Source of the DNA: Alphaproteobacteria bacterium
GTDB lineage: Bacteria; Pseudomonadota; Alphaproteobacteria; JASGCL01
Direction: 5' to 3'
DNA length: 64,000 nt
Assembly (NCBI GenBank): GCA_965203915.1
Contig: OZ241918.1
Coordinates: 430,642-494,641, forward strand
The notes under the pieces were generated by a model. It was not told the origin of the DNA, did not search any database, and was given only the letters and a program-made list of their open reading frames with translations. The translations under genes and the position numbers were made by a program. The number at the start of each line of letters is the position of its first letter. Position 1 is the first letter of the stretch. Positions 1-42,430 of the stretch are shown here, piece after piece.

Positions 1-143
1 TGGTTGGGACCTGCGCGGTGCTGCGGCGCAGAATTATTATTGTCAAAAGGTTGTTGCATAGAAGTTCGAACCATACATTAATGTATATATTTTTTCAAGC
101 GATGTTGAAAAGATAGCCAACTTTGTCTCCGCTATTTTTTTAA

Positions 144-402
144 ATTATATTGACTTTTATGGCTAGTTAATCTATACAAAATTATATTGACTTTTATGGC
201 TAGTTAATCTATACAAAATTATATTGACTTTTATGGCTAGTTAATCTATACAAAATTATATTGACTTTTATGGCTAGTTAATCTATACAAAATTATATTG
301 ACTTTTATGGCTAGTTAATCTATACAAAATTATATTGACTTTTATGGCTAGTTAATCTATACAAAATTATATTGACTTTTATGGCTAGTTAATCTATACA
401 AA
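144..402. repeat. Seven head-to-tail, apparently 100% identical copies of a 37-bp unit (attatattgacttttatggctagttaatctatacaaa)
   Basis: Direct reading: unit starts at 144, 181, 218, 255, 292, 329 and 366, with no spacers. The array ends 72 bp upstream of the pstS ATG. Confidence 0.95.
372..400 (+). promoter_or_regulatory. Sigma70-like promoter inside each repeat unit: -35 TTGACT, 17-bp spacer, -10 TATACA (coordinates given for the pstS-proximal copy; six identical copies upstream)
   Basis: TTGACT at 372-377, spacer 378-394 (17 nt), TATACA at 395-400. Orientation reads into pstS (start 474). A Shine-Dalgarno AGGAAA sits 8 nt before the ATG. Confidence 0.45.
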
Positions 403-473
403 TAGGGTATTGAAATGGGAATTTCATCACATTTTTTACTAGAGAGAGAATAACAGGTTAGGAAAATTTCGTT

Positions 474-1463
474 ATGAATAAAAAAATAATTTTTACTACA
501 TTGGGCGCGTTGTTGTTGGCCACCCAGCCAATTAATTCTTTTGCGCGCGATTTTTTGCGGTTCGCGGGGTCGGGGACTGTCTTCCCCTACGTTAGTGCCA
601 CCAGCGAAAATTGGTCCAAAACCACCAACAACAAAGCACCCGTTATTGAGCAAATCGGCACGGGCGCGGGTTTTAAAAATTTTTGCATGGGCATGGGCGA
701 TAACAGCGCCGATGTAGCCATGGCATCGCGCACCATCAAACCCGAAGAAAAAGCCGCCTGCCAAAAAGCGGGGGTTACCGATATCATCGAATTAAAATTT
801 GGCAATGACGGCATCACCGTGGTGCAGGCAAAAAATGCCGCGCCGCTTGCCCTATGGCGTGCCGATCTTTTCCTAGCCATGTGGGGCGAAAACAATGGCA
901 ACAGCGAACGCAAAACATGGAAAGCGGTGGATAAAAACCGTTTCACCAGCGACAGGCCGCTTAAAATCTATGGGCCAGGTGCGGCCTCTGGCACTTACGA
1001 TGCTTTTATCGAATTGGCCTTAGAAAAAGGTGCGGGCGATGCAAACCCAAAATTCACCACCGAGCAGGTCAAAAAAATTGCCCGAGAAATTCGCCGCGAT
1101 GGCATTTACGTGGATAGCGGTGATAATTATAATGTTATTATCAACAAAATAAAATCTGACCCGACGGCTATCGGCGTGTTGGGGTATAGTTACCTCAATG
1201 CCAACCGCGACAGCGTGGTTGCGGTAAGCATCGACGGTATCATGCCCACTGCCGATACCATCCGCAGTAGGAAATACCCTTTATCGCGTCCTGTGTTTTT
1301 GTATGTGAAGGGCGATACTTTAAAAAAGAACGCCAATTTGAAAAGTTTTCTAAAATTCTTCATGGATGACAGCAACATTGGCGACAATGGTAAAATGGCC
1401 AGCATCGGGCTGGTATCGCTCAAGGCGGCGGAACGCGCGGCGGCCGTGGCGAAAATAAAATAG
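474..1463 (+). CDS. pstS: Phosphate ABC transporter substrate-binding protein PstS
   Basis: 329 aa with an N-terminal signal peptide. PBP fold motifs (GSGT..FPY, YGPGAASGTYDAF). First gene of a pstSCAB-phoU array. Confidence 0.9.
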   Translation: MNKKIIFTTLGALLLATQPINSFARDFLRFAGSGTVFPYVSATSENWSKTTNNKAPVIEQIGTGAGFKNFCMGMGDNSADVAMASRTIKPEEKAACQKAGVTDIIELKFGNDGITVVQAKNAAPLALWRADLFLAMWGENNGNSERKTWKAVDKNRFTSDRPLKIYGPGAASGTYDAFIELALEKGAGDANPKFTTEQVKKIAREIRRDGIYVDSGDNYNVIINKIKSDPTAIGVLGYSYLNANRDSVVAVSIDGIMPTADTIRSRKYPLSRPVFLYVKGDTLKKNANLKSFLKFFMDDSNIGDNGKMASIGLVSLKAAERAAAVAKIK

Positions 1464-1549
1464 CAAAAACAAAATAATTGTTATTCGTTATCATTCATAA
1501 CAATCCCCTGGCGGATGAAGTTATAATCGGCTAGTAGTCAAAAAAAAAT

Positions 1550-2740
1550 TTGATGATATTTATTTTATGTCTTTTTTTGTGGGGCATGGTCGGGCTTGGC
1601 TTTAATTATTTGGTGCGGCGCAAAATTTTCCTACGCCAACTGCTTGTCAACAAAATGGGCAAGCAAAAACTTACCCGTCCTATAGATTTTTTATTTTTGC
1701 TGTGGCTGGTGTTGTTGGTAACGGGCAGTTTGGTATTTTTTGTCACGGGGTATTTTTCTTTGTTGCCCATTCAGCAACTTATTTTGTCGCTTAGCGTGGT
1801 GTTGGTGGCGGGCGGCGGTTTTTATTTGCTGTTGAATTATAATTGGCAAGCCCATTTGTTGACCAGCCGCTTGATAGAGGGTTTGCTATTCATGGGCACC
1901 TTGGTCAGTTTATTTATTTCTTTGGCCATTTTGGCAACATTGTTGTGGCAATCGGTAAGGTTTTTTACCATCACCCCGCTGTTCGAATTTTTGTTTTCGA
2001 CCAATTGGAACCCCAGCACGGGCGAAAATTTTGGTGCCCTACCCATATTTTGGGGCAGCCTGGTTATTGCCTTGATAGCCATGATGGTGGCGACGCCGTT
2101 GGGTATTTTTACCGCCATATATTTGCATGACTATTGTAATAAAAAATTGGCGGCGTGGTTAAAACCCATGTTGGAATTGTTGGCTGGGGTGCCCACCGTG
2201 GTTTATGGTTTTTTTGCCATTTTGATAATTAGCCCGTTGATAAAACATTTTTTTGCTTTGTTTGGTTTGGCGGCTTCTTCTGAAAATGCCCTGTCGGCGG
2301 GGTTGGTGATGGGTATTGCCATCACACCTATCATCAGCTCCTTAAGCCAAGATGCCTTGAATGCCGTGCCCCATGAATTGAAGGAAGCCAGCCTTGGCCT
2401 GGGTGCCACCAAATCGGAAACCATGAGGCAGGTTATATTACCCTACGCCAGCGGCGGTATTTTTGCCGCGATATTGATTGCCATCAGCCGCGCCGTGGGG
2501 GAAACCATGATAGTCGTCATGGCGGCGGGGTTAACCGCAAACCTCACCATCAATCCTTTAGAAAGCCTGACCACTGCCACGGTGCAGATAGTTAGTTTGT
2601 TAACGGGCGACAGTTCGTTCGACAGCCCGCAAACCTTGTCAGCCTATAGTTTGGGCTTATTTTTGTTTATCATTACCTTGGTCATCAACAGCCTATCTAT
2701 CAAATTAAACAAACAACAAAAATTAAAAGGCAGGATATGA
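1550..2740 (+). CDS. pstC: Phosphate ABC transporter permease PstC (long alphaproteobacterial form; true start may be internal)
   Basis: 396 aa polytopic membrane protein. Core reads AISRAVGETMIVVMAAG. Position is between pstS and pstA. Confidence 0.85.
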   Translation: MMIFILCLFLWGMVGLGFNYLVRRKIFLRQLLVNKMGKQKLTRPIDFLFLLWLVLLVTGSLVFFVTGYFSLLPIQQLILSLSVVLVAGGGFYLLLNYNWQAHLLTSRLIEGLLFMGTLVSLFISLAILATLLWQSVRFFTITPLFEFLFSTNWNPSTGENFGALPIFWGSLVIALIAMMVATPLGIFTAIYLHDYCNKKLAAWLKPMLELLAGVPTVVYGFFAILIISPLIKHFFALFGLAASSENALSAGLVMGIAITPIISSLSQDALNAVPHELKEASLGLGATKSETMRQVILPYASGGIFAAILIAISRAVGETMIVVMAAGLTANLTINPLESLTTATVQIVSLLTGDSSFDSPQTLSAYSLGLFLFIITLVINSLSIKLNKQQKLKGRI

Positions 2741-4134
2741 AAAAACCAAACAAGCCAATCAAGCCCAGCCATCGCGCTGTTATCAAGCAAGGATTGGCGC
2801 GGCGTTACCGCGCCGAAAAACGTTTTCGCCTGTGGGGTTTGGCTGCGGTGGTGTTTGCTTTTTGTTTTTTGTCTTTTTTGTTGGTGAGTTTGACGGTGCG
2901 CGCCCTGCCCAGTTTTTATCAGGTGGAAATTACCTTGCCACTTCGATACGATGTTGCGGTGCTTGATAAGCAAAAGAAATTAGAGGGGGAGATGGTTATT
3001 TTGCAAGGCGACATGGCGGGGGTGCTAGCCCAGGGATTATACACGGCCTTGCAAGGGGGCAATGTAGGCGATGTCGCTAATAACCTAACCAACAACAGCG
3101 ACCAGCAACAAAAATCCAAAGGGGCGGCGCAAAACCTAACCACCACTGTGCCAGCGGCATGGCGCGATTCGTTGCTTTCATTGCTGTCGCCCGATGCTGT
3201 TTTTGAAACCAGTCGTTATTTATACCAACAACAAACCATGTTGAATAAGATGGAGGAGAGAAGTGTCCTTGCCTCCAGCTTGGTTGATAATTATATAAAA
3301 GGTCATGGTGCCAACAATCTAACCCTGGAGCAAAAAAATTGGCTGCAAATATTAGCCCATAAAAAATTGATTCATAAGAAGTTTAATTGGCGATTCTTTA
3401 CCAACGGCGATAGTCAACGCCCCGAATCGGCGGGTATTTTAAACGGCGTGTTGGGCTCGCTGTTGACGATTGCTATTTGTTTTGCGGTTTCTTTTCCCAT
3501 TGCCATTATGGCTGGCATTTATTTGGAAGAATTTTTTGACGCCAAACATGCGCGACCCTTTTGGCAAAGGTTTTTTAACGTGGTGGAGGTTAACATCAAT
3601 TCGCTGGCCGCGGTGCCTTCCATCATTTATGGCCTGTTGGGTTTGTCGGTGTTGGTTAATTTTTTTGGCGTGCCGCGTTCATCCTCTCTTGCGGGGGGGT
3701 TGACCCTGGGCTTGATGACCATGCCGCTATTAATTATCGTAACCCGCAGTGCGCTGCGCGCCGTGCCCAATAATATTAGGGAGGCCGCTTTGTCGCTTGG
3801 CATTAACCGTTGGCAATTGGTGTTGCATCACCTGTTGCCCCTGTCATTATCGGGTATTTTAACGGGAACGATATTGGGGTTATCGCGTGCCGTGGGCGAA
3901 ACCGCCCCCTTGATATTGATAGGCATGGTGGCATTTGTTATGTCGGCGGCGACCGATGTAACATCGCCCACCACAACATTGCCCGTCCAGGTTTTTTTGT
4001 GGGCCAACCATGCCGACACGGGGTTCATTTATAAAACGGCGGCTGCAATTATTGTTTTGCTTTTTTTGATTTTTCTGATTAACTTAACCGTGATTATTAT
4101 TCGCCAAAAATGGACAAAACAATCGAGGGTATAA
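2737..4134 (+). CDS. pstA: Phosphate ABC transporter permease PstA with a large N-terminal periplasmic extension
   Basis: 465 aa. C-terminal half is the permease core ([16 protein letters not shown]). Start overlaps the pstC stop by 4 bp (ATGA). Confidence 0.85.
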
Positions 4135-4135
4135 C

Positions 4136-4909
4136 ATGACCACAAAAAAATCTTCACCTATTTTCCAGTGTAATAACCTGTCGGTTTATTATGGTGACAA
4201 ACAGGCGTTAAAAAATATTACTTTATCCGTGGCTAAAAACAAAATCACGGCTTTGATTGGGCCGTCGGGTTGTGGCAAATCGACATTTTTAAAATCCCTC
4301 AACCGCATGAATGACCTGGTTGATAATTGCCATATGACGGGCCAGGTATTGTTGGATGGTCGCGACATTTACGCCAAGGATACCGACGTGGTGTTGTTGC
4401 GTTCACGGGTCGGGATGGTTTTTCAAAAACCAAATCCCTTTGCCAAAAGCATTTATGACAATGTTGCCTATGCCCCCAAAATACATGGGTTGGTAAAAAA
4501 CAAAACCGATACCGATGAAATAGTCGAAACCAGTTTAAAAAAAGCTGGGCTGTGGGATGAGGTAAAAGATGATTTAAAAAAATCGGGCACCGCCCTGTCG
4601 GGTGGGCAACAACAACGTTTGTGCATCGCCCGCACCATCGCCATCAACCCCGATGTTATCTTGATGGACGAACCATGTTCGGCGCTTGACCCCATTGCCA
4701 CGGCAAGGATAGAAGATTTGATGGCCGAATTGGCGAAAAAATATACCATTATTATTGTCACCCATTCGATGTCACAGGCGCGGCGGGTTTCCGACATAAC
4801 TTGTTTTTTTTATTTAGGTGATTTAATAGAAAGTGGTAGGACGGACGATATTTTCGACAACCCAAAAGATAAAAAAACATACAATTATATTACGGGAAGG
4901 TTTGGCTAA
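4136..4909 (+). CDS. pstB: Phosphate import ATP-binding protein PstB
   Basis: 257 aa. Walker [10 protein letters not shown], signature LSGGQQQRL, Walker B ILMDEP. Confidence 0.92.
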
Positions 4910-4911
4910 AG

Positions 4912-5595
4912 ATGAACAATGGCAATTTAATAAGAAGAGAAGAAGCGCGTGATTTTAAGCATTTGTTTCAGTTGCTGGAAAAAATGGACAAAATTGCAAC
5001 CAAAATGGTGAAGGACTTCCTTGACCAGTTGCAACACCCTGAGGGTGCGGCGTTAAAAAAAATCATGGCCGCCGACCGCGACCTGGATGAATTGGAAATT
5101 ATTGTCAATGAAGAGGTCATTGCCATTATCAGCCGTTGGCAACCCGTCGCCAACGATCTGCGCATGATGATGGCGGCGATAAAAATTGCCACGGCATTCG
5201 AACGCATCGGCGACTATATCCATAGCAATTCTAACAAGATTATTTTTTCGTTAGAAAATGGTTTGAATCCCAAATCCATCAATATTAAGGCTTTAGGCAA
5301 CCTGGGGGTGAGGATTGTTGCCTTGATGAGTTTGGTGTCGCAAGATATAAAAAATCATGCCAGTAACAATGCCGAAAAAATAATGGCGGAGGATTTTTTG
5401 ATAGATAAAATATACGGCGAATTATATAGGGAAAGTTTGCAGTCCGACGGCAAAACGCCCATCGCGGGGGTTATCAAAACAGTGATGATAGCAAAATACC
5501 TGGAACGGATAGGGGACCAGTTAAGAAATATCGCCGAGGCCTTGCTCTACGCGACCGAGGGTAAATTGCCCCTTCCTGAACGCGGGCAATTTTAA
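4912..5595 (+). CDS. phoU: Phosphate signalling complex protein PhoU
   Basis: 227 aa, two PhoU repeats. Immediately follows pstB. Confidence 0.85.
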   Translation: MNNGNLIRREEARDFKHLFQLLEKMDKIATKMVKDFLDQLQHPEGAALKKIMAADRDLDELEIIVNEEVIAIISRWQPVANDLRMMMAAIKIATAFERIGDYIHSNSNKIIFSLENGLNPKSINIKALGNLGVRIVALMSLVSQDIKNHASNNAEKIMAEDFLIDKIYGELYRESLQSDGKTPIAGVIKTVMIAKYLERIGDQLRNIAEALLYATEGKLPLPERGQF

Positions 5596-5607
5596 TTACT
5601 GCTGGCT

Positions 5608-7711: not shown

Positions 7712-9280
7712 ATGGAAACTATTTATCCTGTTTTGTTGTGCGGCGGTGTTGGTAGCAGACTTTGGCCATTATCGCGCCAAGCCAAGCCAAAACAATTTTT
7801 GTCGCTGCTGGATAAAGAACAAAGCCTGTTTCAATCAACCATCGCACGGTTAAAAAATTTTTCTCACCAAGCCAATGTTTATAACGGTTTTGCCATCGGC
7901 GAAATGACCTGTATCGGGGCGGGCATGGTGGATGGCGTCATGGCGCACCAATTTTTTATCTATGAACAATTACAAGCCATGGGGACGACCGCCAATATAT
8001 TATTGGAACCCATGGCGCGCGATTCGGGACCCGCGATATTGGCGGCTTGCCTGCATCATCAGCAACAGGTTGATGATAAACATGGCGCCTTGTTGATATT
8101 GCCTTGCGACCATTATATTGAACATCCCCAAGAATTTTACCGATCCTTGGCGGTGGCGATGGAAAAATTAAACACCGAGAGAGATGCCATTGTTACATTT
8201 GGTATTATGCCCCATGCGGCGTCAAAAAATTATGGTTATATTTTACCCGATGCAAAACAGGCAGGAAAAAATCAGGGGGATAAAAAACAGGGGGATAAAA
8301 ACATAGACTGCCTGCCCGTTACAACATTCAAAGAAAAGCCAGATGAAAAAACCGCGCAACATTATATCGAACAGGGTTATTTGTGGAACAGTGGTATATT
8401 TTTATTTTATCCCGAAACCGTTATTGCCGCTTACCAACGGCTGCAACCCGATACTTACAAAGAAGTGCTGGCGGCGGTAACGGGCATGGTGCGCGACCCA
8501 TCGCCGCAATGGCCATTTTGGTGGTTGGTGGAGGAAGCCTATAAAAAAATCAAACCCTTGTCGTTTGATTATGCCATCATGGAAAAAAACAAAAAAAACT
8601 TTGTGGTGACCATGAACAAAAACAGCAATTGGGGCTGGTCGGACCTTGGTAGTTTTGATGAAATAAAACGCCTTCATCAACAGGATAAGGATGGCAATGC
8701 CATTCACCAAGTCGACGACAAAACCCCGCCCGTTGTTCTGCATCAATCAACCAACAATTTGGTGATGAACAGCGGCGGGCAAACCATTGCCCTGTTGGGG
8801 GTGGAGGATAAGGCGGTTATCGCCACCAAGGATGCCTTGTTGGTGGCCGATTGGCAATATCTGTCGGAAATGAAAGAATTGGTAAAAAAATTACAAGCAG
8901 GCAACGGCAACATCACCGCCCATCACAGCGCCGTCACCCGCCCATGGGGTTATTATGAATCGCTCAAGGTTGATGATGGTTATCAAGTAAAAAAATTGTT
9001 TTTAAAACCTGGCGCCAAAATCTCGCTCCAGAAGCATCGCCACCGTTCGGAACATTGGGTGGTGGTCAAGGGCAAGGCCAAGGTAACCCTGGGCGATAGC
9101 GCCGAAACCTTGCAAGAAAAAATTTTATTGGCCAACCAATCGATCTATTTGCCCGTTGGCATTATTCACCGTTTGGAAAATATCGGCGAAGGCGATTTGG
9201 AATTGATAGAGGTGCAGACAGGAAGTTATTTGGGTGAAGACGATATTGAACGTATCGAGGATATTTATCGCCGCAAATAA
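7712..9280 (+). CDS. manC: Bifunctional mannose-1-phosphate guanylyltransferase / mannose-6-phosphate isomerase (ManC/CpsB type) with a Lys/Gly/Asp-rich insertion
   Basis: 522 aa. N-terminal NTP-transferase (PVLLCGGVGSRLWPLS) and C-terminal cupin (HRHRSEHWVVVKG). Confidence 0.85.
   Translation: METIYPVLLCGGVGSRLWPLSRQAKPKQFLSLLDKEQSLFQSTIARLKNFSHQANVYNGFAIGEMTCIGAGMVDGVMAHQFFIYEQLQAMGTTANILLEPMARDSGPAILAACLHHQQQVDDKHGALLILPCDHYIEHPQEFYRSLAVAMEKLNTERDAIVTFGIMPHAASKNYGYILPDAKQAGKNQGDKKQGDKNIDCLPVTTFKEKPDEKTAQHYIEQGYLWNSGIFLFYPETVIAAYQRLQPDTYKEVLAAVTGMVRDPSPQWPFWWLVEEAYKKIKPLSFDYAIMEKNKKNFVVTMNKNSNWGWSDLGSFDEIKRLHQQDKDGNAIHQVDDKTPPVVLHQSTNNLVMNSGGQTIALLGVEDKAVIATKDALLVADWQYLSEMKELVKKLQAGNGNITAHHSAVTRPWGYYESLKVDDGYQVKKLFLKPGAKISLQKHRHRSEHWVVVKGKAKVTLGDSAETLQEKILLANQSIYLPVGIIHRLENIGEGDLELIEVQTGSYLGEDDIERIEDIYRRK
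8273..8302 (+). repeat. 15-bp perfect tandem duplication (cagggggataaaaaa x2) inside manC, encoding ..NQGDKKQGDKN..
   Basis: Read directly; the duplication is in frame. Confidence 0.85.
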
Positions 9281-40956: not shown

Positions 40957-42387
40957 ATGCATTTATCGGTTTTTGATTTGTTTAAAGTGGGGATTGGGCC
41001 TTCCAGTTCTCATACCGTGGGGCCCATGGTCGCCGCGAAACGTTTTGTTACCGACCTTAGCACGCAAAAAAAATTGTTTGACGTTGCTAGCGTCACGGTG
41101 AAATTATATGGGTCCTTGGCCCTGACGGGTTTGGGCCACGCGACTGACCGTGCCATTGTGCTGGGTTTAATGGGCGAACGCCCCGATGAAACCGACCCGA
41201 ATTTGGTCGAAGAAAAAATCAAAACCTTGAAAGAAAAAAAACATCTATTGTTGGATGGCGAGCACGATATAGAATTTGTCTATGAAAAAAATTTGGATTT
41301 TCGTTATGGCGAGTTTAAAGAAAAACATTCCAACACCATGGAATTCATTGCCACCGACAAACAGGGTCAGGAATTATTTCGTGATACCTATTATTCAGTT
41401 GGCGGCGGTTTTGTATTAAGCGATGAAGAATTTGAACGCGGCACCAGCAATGTGGCGGCGGCCGCCAATTTAACCGTGCCGAATATTTTTAATAATGGCG
41501 AGGAGTTATTAAACATCGCCAAAAAAAAGAACATGACCATCGCCGAGGTGTTGATGGAAAATGAATTAACCTGGCGCAAGAAAGAGGATATTGAAAAGGG
41601 CATAGATAAAATTTGGGCGGTGATGGAAGCCTGCATCCAGCGTGGTATAAGCCAAGAGGGGATATTGCCTGGCGGCCTTAATATTCGGCGCCGTGCCAAG
41701 CAGATAGCCGACAATTTGGATAGGTCGAATCAAGAAATAAAAATGAAATTAGGGGCTATCAATTTGGAAGATATTCCGATGAAGACGATGGATTGGGTTA
41801 ATGTTTTTGCTTTGGCAGTTAACGAGGAAAATGCAGCGGGTGGGCGCGTTGTCACCGCCCCCACCAATGGGGCGGCGGGGGTTATACCCGCGGTGATGGC
41901 CTATTATCATCGCTTTGTCCCAGGGGGGAAGGATGTAAAAAACCTTCGTATTTTTATGTTAACCGCGGCGGCGATAGGGATGCTGTATAAAAAAAATGCC
42001 TCCATTTCCGCGGCGGAGGTTGGATGCCAAGGCGAAGTTGGCGTGGCATGTTCGATGGCGGCGGCGGGTTTGACGGCGGCGATGGGCGGCACGATGGACC
42101 AAGTGGAAAATGCCGCCGAAATTGGCATGGAACATAATTTGGGGCTGACTTGCGACCCTATCAATGGTTTGGTTCAGGTGCCGTGCATCGAGCGCAACAC
42201 CATGGGGGCGGTGAAGGCCATCAATGCGTCGCGCCTGGCCCTGCATGGCGATGGCACGCATTTGGTGTCGTTGGATAAAGTCATTGAAACCATGATGGAG
42301 ACAGGCAAAGACATGTTGCATAAATACAAAGAAACATCCGAAGGCGGCTTAGCCACCAAGGTTTCGGTTGCCTTACCAGAATGTTAG
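40957..42387 (+). CDS. sdaA: L-serine dehydratase (Fe-S, single chain)
   Basis: N-terminus [27 protein letters not shown] extends upstream to 40921. Confidence 0.9.
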
Positions 42388-42430
42388 GGTTAGGAAAGTT
42401 TTTTAATGTTAGGGTTAGGAAAGTTTTTTA
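42381..42430. repeat. 25-bp perfect tandem duplication (atgttagggttaggaaagtttttta x2) spanning the sdaA stop codon
   Basis: Read directly. The second copy supplies the apparent ATG of the next ORF. Confidence 0.9.

Follow-up and report, generated by a model that had tools for sequence, protein, structure and literature searches.

What does it mean that the spacer between a divergently transcribed efflux gene and the phosphate-transport gene pstS is largely filled with perfect copies of a single 37-bp sequence, and do these copies act on pstS? We addressed this question for a 64-kb stretch of alphaproteobacterial DNA (positions 430,642 to 494,641 of contig OZ241918.1; hereafter, the window), in which such an array faces the operon pstS-pstC-pstA-pstB-phoU. 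We conclude with high confidence that the array is real and that it arose by recent local amplification. What it does is far less certain. Judged from the sequence, the chance that the array is a promoter tandem repeat, i.e., an intergenic variable-number tandem repeat (VNTR) in which the pstS core promoter has been multiplied, with an effect on pst transcription, is about even, and we likewise put at about one half the broader possibility that it changes pst expression at all.

Across the 64 kb, Tandem Repeats Finder identifies one array with a period of 37 bp, at positions 142–402, comprising 7.1 copies with 100% matches, no indels and a score of 522 (the repeat count can also be expressed as 7.05, with no mismatch). 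The runner-up in the window scores 102, and the array is thus a clear outlier among the repeats of this region. A search for the 37-mer AAATTATATTGACTTTTATGGCTAGTTAATCTATACA returns seven exact, head-to-tail matches, starting at 142, 179, 216, 253, 290, 327 and 364; no other copy is found in the window at up to 3 mismatches, and 100 shuffles yielded 0 matches. The two methods together confirm what a preliminary description of this DNA had read by eye, namely a 7 × 37-bp array free of mismatches. The last full unit ends at 400, the periodicity continues to 402, and the pstS ATG lies at 474, so the distance of 72 bp between last copy and start codon given in that description is correct to within 1 nt. 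The array occupies 261 of the 399 bp that separate the gene for an RND efflux adaptor (start at 74, minus strand) from pstS (plus strand), and its base composition (78% A+T) stands out against surroundings of ~45% G+C. Microhomology at the edges of the unit amounts to no more than 2 nt (AA).

Comparison with relatives shows where the unit came from. In the closest relative genome (L001; ENA ERZ26695388 = CBDHFT010000006.1, a 412-kb contig), gene order is the same, the flanks are ~94% identical in DNA against a genome background of ~94–95%, and the region upstream of pstS contains one copy of the unit rather than seven. With only the last of the window's seven units retained, the alignment of the two sequences runs gap-free from the adaptor gene into pstS; in other words, the window has the L001 architecture plus exactly 6 × 37 bp. 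A junction between two units would read CTATACAAAATTATATTGAC in the window type and TTTATTGAAAATTATATTGAC in the L001 type. The 3′ third of the unit reads AATCTATACA in all seven copies of the window and GGTTTATTGA in both L001 and a third strain, L011. Because all seven copies carry the window-specific version, amplification must have followed the divergence of this 3′ third. Its age can be narrowed further. There are 0 differences among the 259 bp of the copies, whereas synonymous divergence (dS) from L001 is 0.14–0.22 in the flanking genes, which places the last expansion or homogenisation of the array much later than the split between the strains. If the intergenic rate is near neutral, a rough estimate is that this event falls within the last ~12% of the time since that split. 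The earlier view that perfect identity implies recent expansion is borne out, with homogenisation as the other possible cause, and copy number does differ, at 7 versus 1, between the only two genomes that can be compared, the window's and L001.

The third strain deserves comment. Look-ups of sequence clusters gave Logan fragments from two runs, SRR13639653 and SRR13639655, and L011 comes from the former. It has an L001-type leader and a pstS contig whose first base corresponds to unit position 7 (TATTGAC...), 3 nt from position 10, the point at which a de Bruijn graph with k=31 would break if a 37-bp array were present. A contig start so close to the break point could be coincidence or could reflect low coverage. 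Homologues of the RND adaptor led to four further loci (L007–L010), in which the upstream regions are unrelated or do not adjoin pstS.

The unit appears to be restricted to this site. A 23-mer core pattern in which one position was left free matches once among all GTDB species-representative genomes, in the pstS upstream region of L001, and not at all in the JGI metagenomes or in IMG/VR. An exact 33-mer has no match among GTDB species-representative genomes, a 29-mer from the conserved pstS leader has none in the JGI metagenomes, and blastn of the region found none in 72,556 plasmids or 50,697 phages. Since the pattern occurs once in the L001 genome and in none of the metagenome, viral, plasmid and phage collections, nor elsewhere in the window, we regard the repeat as local and pst-specific. 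A dispersed repeat of the REP or MITE kind is rejected on the same counts (no other copy in 64 kb at 3 mismatches, one site in the whole L001 genome), in agreement with the preliminary description's view of a device particular to pst, with the limit that the source genome beyond the window was not scanned.

Several other identities were considered and set aside. The units abut without spacers, so the array is not a CRISPR, as had been stated. A structured RNA or riboswitch is rejected, as there is no Rfam match at gathering thresholds in the whole window and none at E ≤ 1 in positions 1–600; the predicted fold of RNA spanning the array is no more stable than that of its shuffles (z = −0.02). 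Plasmid or phage iterons, or a replication origin, are rejected as well: no plasmid or phage matches, and the chromosomal neighbours are syntenic in relatives. Cumulative GC skew climbs almost steadily across the window, with no change of sign.

What, then, does the unit contain? On the plus strand of every copy, TTGACT (unit positions 9–14) is followed, after a spacer of 17 nt, by TATACA (positions 32–37). This is the best promoter match of the unit; it lies on the pstS strand and agrees with the consensus at 9 of 12 positions, the -10 element contributing only 4 of 6 and lacking the final T. In the last copy, 73 nt separate the end of the -10 from the pstS ATG. TTGACT, and TAT 17 nt later, are invariant in the three strains. 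The missing T need not disqualify the element in this lineage, because most alphaproteobacterial sigma-70 promoters lack -7T (PMC8407463). By our own reading, a promoter of similar style, TTGACA-17-TACCCA, precedes rpsF in L001. In the sister lineage, a pstS paralogue has TTGACA-17-TAACAT, which ends 44 nt ahead of its ATG. The credibility of TTGACT-17-TATACA as a promoter would come from this context, i.e., its position and orientation, the tendency of the lineage to do without -7T and the likeness to the rpsF element.

We propose, as a model, that one 37-bp segment of the native promoter region shared by pstS and the RND efflux operon was amplified from one copy to seven, recently and in the window's lineage, probably through replication slippage or unequal recombination. 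The unit runs from 8 nt ahead of TTGACT to the last base of TATACA, and since these bounds enclose both hexamers, every copy would constitute a complete sigma-70 core promoter of alphaproteobacterial style facing pstS. Start sites are predicted at ~406–407 for the last copy and at about position 6–8 of the next unit for the other six, forming a ladder of 37-nt steps in which each start falls just ahead of the -35 of the following unit. With more entry sites for RNA polymerase, transcription of pstSCAB-phoU would be expected to rise with copy number and to saturate, and the array itself may be unstable, prone to further expansion and contraction, phase-variable, or under selection. What is observed accords with an intergenic VNTR in that the copies lie head to tail directly 5′ of a gene, and their number differs between strains (one comparison, with L001). 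The unit is of local, native origin, as seen from its single orthologous copy in L001, and holds candidate promoter elements in the form of motifs whose 9/12 match is not above chance. The period of 37 bp also corresponds to 3.5 helical turns, which would put neighbouring complexes on opposite faces of the helix.

A number of observations weigh against this model. An E. coli-type promoter scanner does not call TTGACT-17-TATACA, and when random 37-mers of matched composition are arranged in tandem, 51–55% show a 9/12 match on one strand or the other, so the motif match alone is no evidence; a stricter requirement, at least 5/6 plus at least 4/6 at a spacer of 17, is reached by only 7–10% of them. 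The preliminary description had called the element consensus-like and near-ideal. The element is indeed present in each unit, but the grading does not hold, given a score that about half of random 37-mers match. Conservation of the motif among strains says little when background identity is already ~94–95%, and we judge phylogenetic footprinting uninformative for the same reason. The contrast in copy number involves two genomes, seven copies versus one, the short L011 contig stopping inside the unit. There is, in addition, another candidate promoter for pstS, TTGTCT-17-TATATT; if it is the real one, the array would mostly lengthen the leader. A perfect 25 bp × 2 duplication (42380–42429) has arisen in this genome with no obvious function. 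Moreover, a spacing of 37 bp is far below the full footprint of RNA polymerase, and neighbouring copies must therefore interfere with one another. Finally, even synthetic arrays of core-tac promoters reach a plateau at 5 copies (PMC3293061).

The description of the array as aimed at pstS also needs qualification. TTGACT-17-TATACA does face pstS, but the region is divergent, and each unit contains in addition a perfect TATAAT on the minus strand (reverse complement ATTATA, unit positions 3–8), directed toward the efflux operon, for which the available -35 sequences are poor.

If the promoter model fails, the most plausible substitute is a passive minisatellite, which we consider possible, though clearly less likely: the same slippage would have expanded the unit with no meaningful effect on pst or efflux genes, and the array would have been tolerated in a divergent intergenic region and fixed by drift in an organism with a small genome and probably a small population. 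The promoter-likeness of the unit, which is not above chance, fits this account, as do the lack of regulator-type symmetry in the unit, the lack of special structure in the leader RNA, the second perfect tandem duplication in the window and the several short intergenic repeats at a sister-lineage locus (L004). It does not readily explain why the unit contains a whole set of -35, spacer and -10 that is oriented towards pstS and lies at a plausible distance from it. By our estimate, a 37-bp segment placed at random in the 193-bp ancestral spacer would enclose a given 29-bp element only ~6% of the time, and one would not expect seven AT-rich, promoter-like sites 70–330 nt 5′ of a gene to lack transcriptional activity altogether. 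An independent difference in repeat copy number at a sister-lineage pstS promoter, described below, also speaks against pure passivity. It is unlikely, in our view, that the array acts instead as leader or insulator, with TTGTCT-17-TATATT or another element outside the units serving as the working promoter and the array adding 222 nt to the 5′ leader, lowering or decoupling pst expression or spacing the divergent promoters apart. In the window as in L001, the alternative candidate agrees with the consensus at 9/12 positions, and its -10 shows the canonical A2 and T6; its -35 lies outside the array, and every unit would add to the leader the plus-strand mini-ORF that it contains (ATG GCT AGT TAA). 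On the other hand, its TATATT, located within unit 1, overlaps the TTGACT of the first candidate and is found again in each unit behind a -35 that matches at 3/6; even on this reading the units remain promoter-like, and the array contains neither a terminator nor a stable structure.

Somewhat less probable still is a third reading, in which every unit presents the same binding site to a regulator, whether PhoB-like or of another type, or to a nucleoid protein, and copy number sets the occupancy or silencing of pstS, the efflux operon or both. A block this rich in A+T could attract nucleoid-associated proteins, an 8-bp VNTR between clbR and clbB affects clbR promoter activity (PMC10924459), and the sister lineage has an 11-bp array with Pho-box-like geometry. 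The unit itself offers little for a regulator to read. A palindromic operator is rejected, as the unit has no inverted repeat of at least 8 nt. A Pho-box array is rejected too: the unit matches itself at a shift of 11 in 12 of 37 positions, which is background, and its best matches to E. coli and alphaproteobacterial Pho boxes are no better than those of shuffles (fractions 0.51–0.76), as the preliminary description had held. A phmmer search with an approximate E. coli PhoB query found no OmpR-family protein among the open reading frames (ORFs) of the window and of the flanks and loci compared with it, and no such regulator adjoins the pst operon, after phoU or before pstS, in three genomes. 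The regulator-site alternative raised earlier thus finds no support. Least likely of all, and very improbable, is an assembly artefact in which the assembler created the array or misjudged its copy number. The array is known from one assembly only. Its source contig of 1.63 Mb, however, implies long reads, for which 261 bp is no obstacle; the usual error of assemblers is to collapse a tandem repeat, not to expand it; and the unit boundaries are clean, with flanks collinear with the independent L001 assembly.

Between genomes that are otherwise ~94–95% identical, positions ~560–3030 of the window (pstS, pstC and the 5′ half of pstA) form a divergent island relative to L001 10090–12640. Here dS reaches 1.53 for pstS, 0.96 for pstC and 0.95 for pstA, compared with 0.14–0.22 for pstB, phoU, gmd and manC, and dN/dS (the ratio of nonsynonymous to synonymous divergence) is 0.12–0.17 for the three divergent genes. 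These values suggest that pstS-pstC-pstA is an imported or anciently diverged allele under purifying selection. The left edge of the island fades in near the array: divergence rises from the 3′ third of the unit, is zero over 463–502, and saturates ~300 nt into pstS. Within this gradient, positions 446–528, which include the pstS leader, the ribosome-binding site and the region coding for the signal peptide, are almost identical to L001 (40/40 over 463–502), and in the rest of pstS, 3′ of this block, synonymous sites are saturated. The conservation of the block may reflect either a recombination mosaic or constraint at the nucleotide level on the region of translation initiation.

In the sister lineage, an 11-bp unit, GGACTTTCCTT, abuts the element CTTGACA-17-TAACAT 5′ of a pstS paralogue (L005 80–125, L004 1599–1623). 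L005 is longer than L004 by exactly 22 bp, or two units (~4 versus ~2 copies), with flanks that are 100% identical. Because this case is independent of the 37-bp array, repeat copy number has changed at pstS promoters at least twice in the clade. The sequence GGGAATTTCAT (417–427) in the window resembles the sister-lineage 11-mer at 9 of 11 positions; we dropped this likeness, for which a chance match is estimated at ~25%. One could speculate that in this reduced-genome clade the capacity for phosphate uptake is set genetically, instead of or besides PhoBR signalling, by expansion and contraction of arrays at pstS promoters, with seven core promoters at about the minimal non-occluding spacing here and an 11-bp array abutting the -35 in the sister lineage. 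Such a clade-wide contingency mechanism is improbable on present evidence. If true, it would concern a nutrient transporter, beyond the usual surface antigens of pathogens. In any event, the 37-bp array, the 11-bp difference in the sister lineage and the divergent pstS-pstC-pstA alleles mark the pst locus as fast-evolving in this clade.

The kind of element proposed here is already known, both as natural promoter VNTRs and as engineered clusters of tandem promoters. In Mycobacterium tuberculosis, promoter tandem repeats at dop (57 bp), lpdA and cysG vary between strains and within cultures, and four copies of the lpdA repeat give 12.5-fold the expression of one copy (PMC12817950); the repeats of lpdA-glpD2 (VNTR3690) and cysG-efpA are attributed there to earlier work (PMC12817950; Akhtar 2009 and Tantivitayakul 2010, as cited therein). 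Like the window's array, these consist of tandem units of tens of bp that contain promoter sequence directly 5′ of a gene and differ in number between strains; promoter strength is proposed to depend on copy number, and the arrays are resolved only by long reads. Unlike them, the present array has seven perfect copies of a shorter unit, 37 bp or about a minimal core promoter, and belongs to the phosphate-uptake operon of an uncultured alphaproteobacterium.

Closer in geometry are the engineered clusters of 41-bp core-tac promoters (MCPtacs), which were built with up to 10 copies and whose output rises stepwise to ~4.4-fold at 5 copies before levelling off (PMC3293061). Both they and the window's array line up identical core promoters (in the window, candidate ones) of ~40 bp head to tail; the former are synthetic, with a consensus E. 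coli promoter and measured output, whereas the latter is natural, with a 9/12 match, and known from its sequence. A fitted model of E. coli tandem promoters predicts no mutual occlusion once start sites lie 36 bp or more from each other (PMC8830795), and the period of 37 bp would sit just above this limit. In the E. coli colibactin island, the size of the clbR-clbB intergenic VNTR affects the promoter activity of the adjacent gene (PMC10924459). There, too, a variable tandem repeat lies within a divergent intergenic region; its 8-bp unit, in contrast, is not itself a promoter and works together with the regulator ClbR. Host-adapted bacteria have promoter switches built from simple sequence repeats, such as homopolymer or tetranucleotide tracts that change the spacing between -35 and -10. 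The concept of reversible transcriptional tuning by repeat number is shared, but in those switches units of 1–9 bp alter spacer length or upstream phasing, whereas here whole promoters would be multiplied with their internal spacing untouched. Pho boxes, the 11-bp direct repeats bound by PhoB/OmpR-type proteins, are likewise direct repeats 5′ of pstS, a geometry shared by the sister-lineage array; the 37-bp unit differs from them in having neither an 11-bp periodicity nor an above-chance match to their consensus.

Should copy number indeed tune pst expression, the array would be an unusually clean natural counterpart of the engineered tandem-promoter clusters, and the reach of regulation by promoter VNTRs would widen beyond M. 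tuberculosis and pathogenicity loci of E. coli to take in nutrient uptake by an uncultured alphaproteobacterium with a small genome. Without such an effect, the array is a recent minisatellite of the ordinary kind. The interest of the locus lies in the unusual cleanness of the array, its phosphate-transporter target and the parallel repeat polymorphism in the sister lineage. Arrays of this sort are invisible to short-read assemblies.

The features of the locus are collected in Table 1. The window begins inside the RND adaptor gene; protein P0133, from the same 1.63-Mb source contig, matches RND_mfp above cut-off and supplies the N-terminus encoded here. The host is an uncultured alphaproteobacterium with a small genome. 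Relatives of its RadA protein show 99%, 87% and 84% identity, including metagenome-assembled genomes labelled 'Alphaproteobacteria bacterium', after which identity drops to at most 59%.

Table 1. Features of the intergenic array and its neighbourhood (window coordinates).
Feature	Position	Strand	Basis and remarks
RND efflux periplasmic adaptor gene, 5′ end (window begins inside gene)	1..74	-	translation 74->1 is the N-terminus of P0133
Alternative candidate pstS promoter, TTGTCT(123-128)-17-TATATT(146-151)	123..151	+	promoter scan; 9/12, canonical A2 and T6; L001 has TTGCCT-17-TATATT
Tandem array, 7 full 37-bp units plus 2 extra periodic bases	142..402	+	78% A+T; Tandem Repeats Finder, exact pattern search, direct reading
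Perfect TATAAT, present in every unit, facing the RND adaptor gene	144..149	-	poor -35s: ATTAAC at spacer 16, TTAACT at spacer 15
pstS-proximal unit	364..400	+	orthologue of the lone L001 copy (L001 9891-9927); collapsed-array alignment gap-free
Candidate -35, TTGACT, last unit	372..377	+	other copies at 150, 187, 224, 261, 298, 335; identical in L001 and L011
Candidate -10, TATACA, last unit	395..400	+	17 nt after TTGACT; unit positions 32-37; L001 has TATTGA there
Unique leader between array and pstS	403..473	+	AGGAAA ribosome-binding site at 460-465; block 446-473 identical in L001
pstS, phosphate ABC transporter substrate-binding protein, first gene 3′ of array	474..1463	+	ORF; Pfam PBP_like_2 above cut-off; NCBIfam PstS family below cut-off; synteny
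pstC	1550..2740	+	NCBIfam equivalog above cut-off
pstA	2737..4134	+	NCBIfam equivalog above cut-off
pstB	4136..4909	+	NCBIfam equivalog above cut-off
phoU	4912..5595	+	NCBIfam equivalog above cut-off

Some additional observations concern the surroundings of the array. A perfect palindrome of 14 bp, ATACATTAATGTAT, at positions 73–86 overlaps the annotated start codon of the RND adaptor gene (74, minus strand) and is identical in L001; it is a candidate operator of the efflux operon. At the other end of the pst operon, L001 carries an extra gene of the RrnaAD family (rRNA adenine dimethylase-like; L001 15161–16171) between phoU and the GDP-fucose synthase gene, which is absent at the corresponding place in the window (5596–5607).

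Other tandem repeats occur further along the window. The duplication at 42380–42429 consists of two perfect copies of the 25-bp sequence AATGTTAGGGTTAGGAAAGTTTTTT at the junction of two plus-strand ORFs and is evidence of very recent tandem duplication in this genome beyond the array; it includes GGTTAGGAAA, a ribosome-binding-site motif that is also found in the pstS leader (456–465). Within an ORF resembling mannose-1-phosphate guanylyltransferase (7712–9280), an in-frame tandem repeat of 15 bp × 3.2 at 8254–8301 encodes a repeated KQGDK-like insert.

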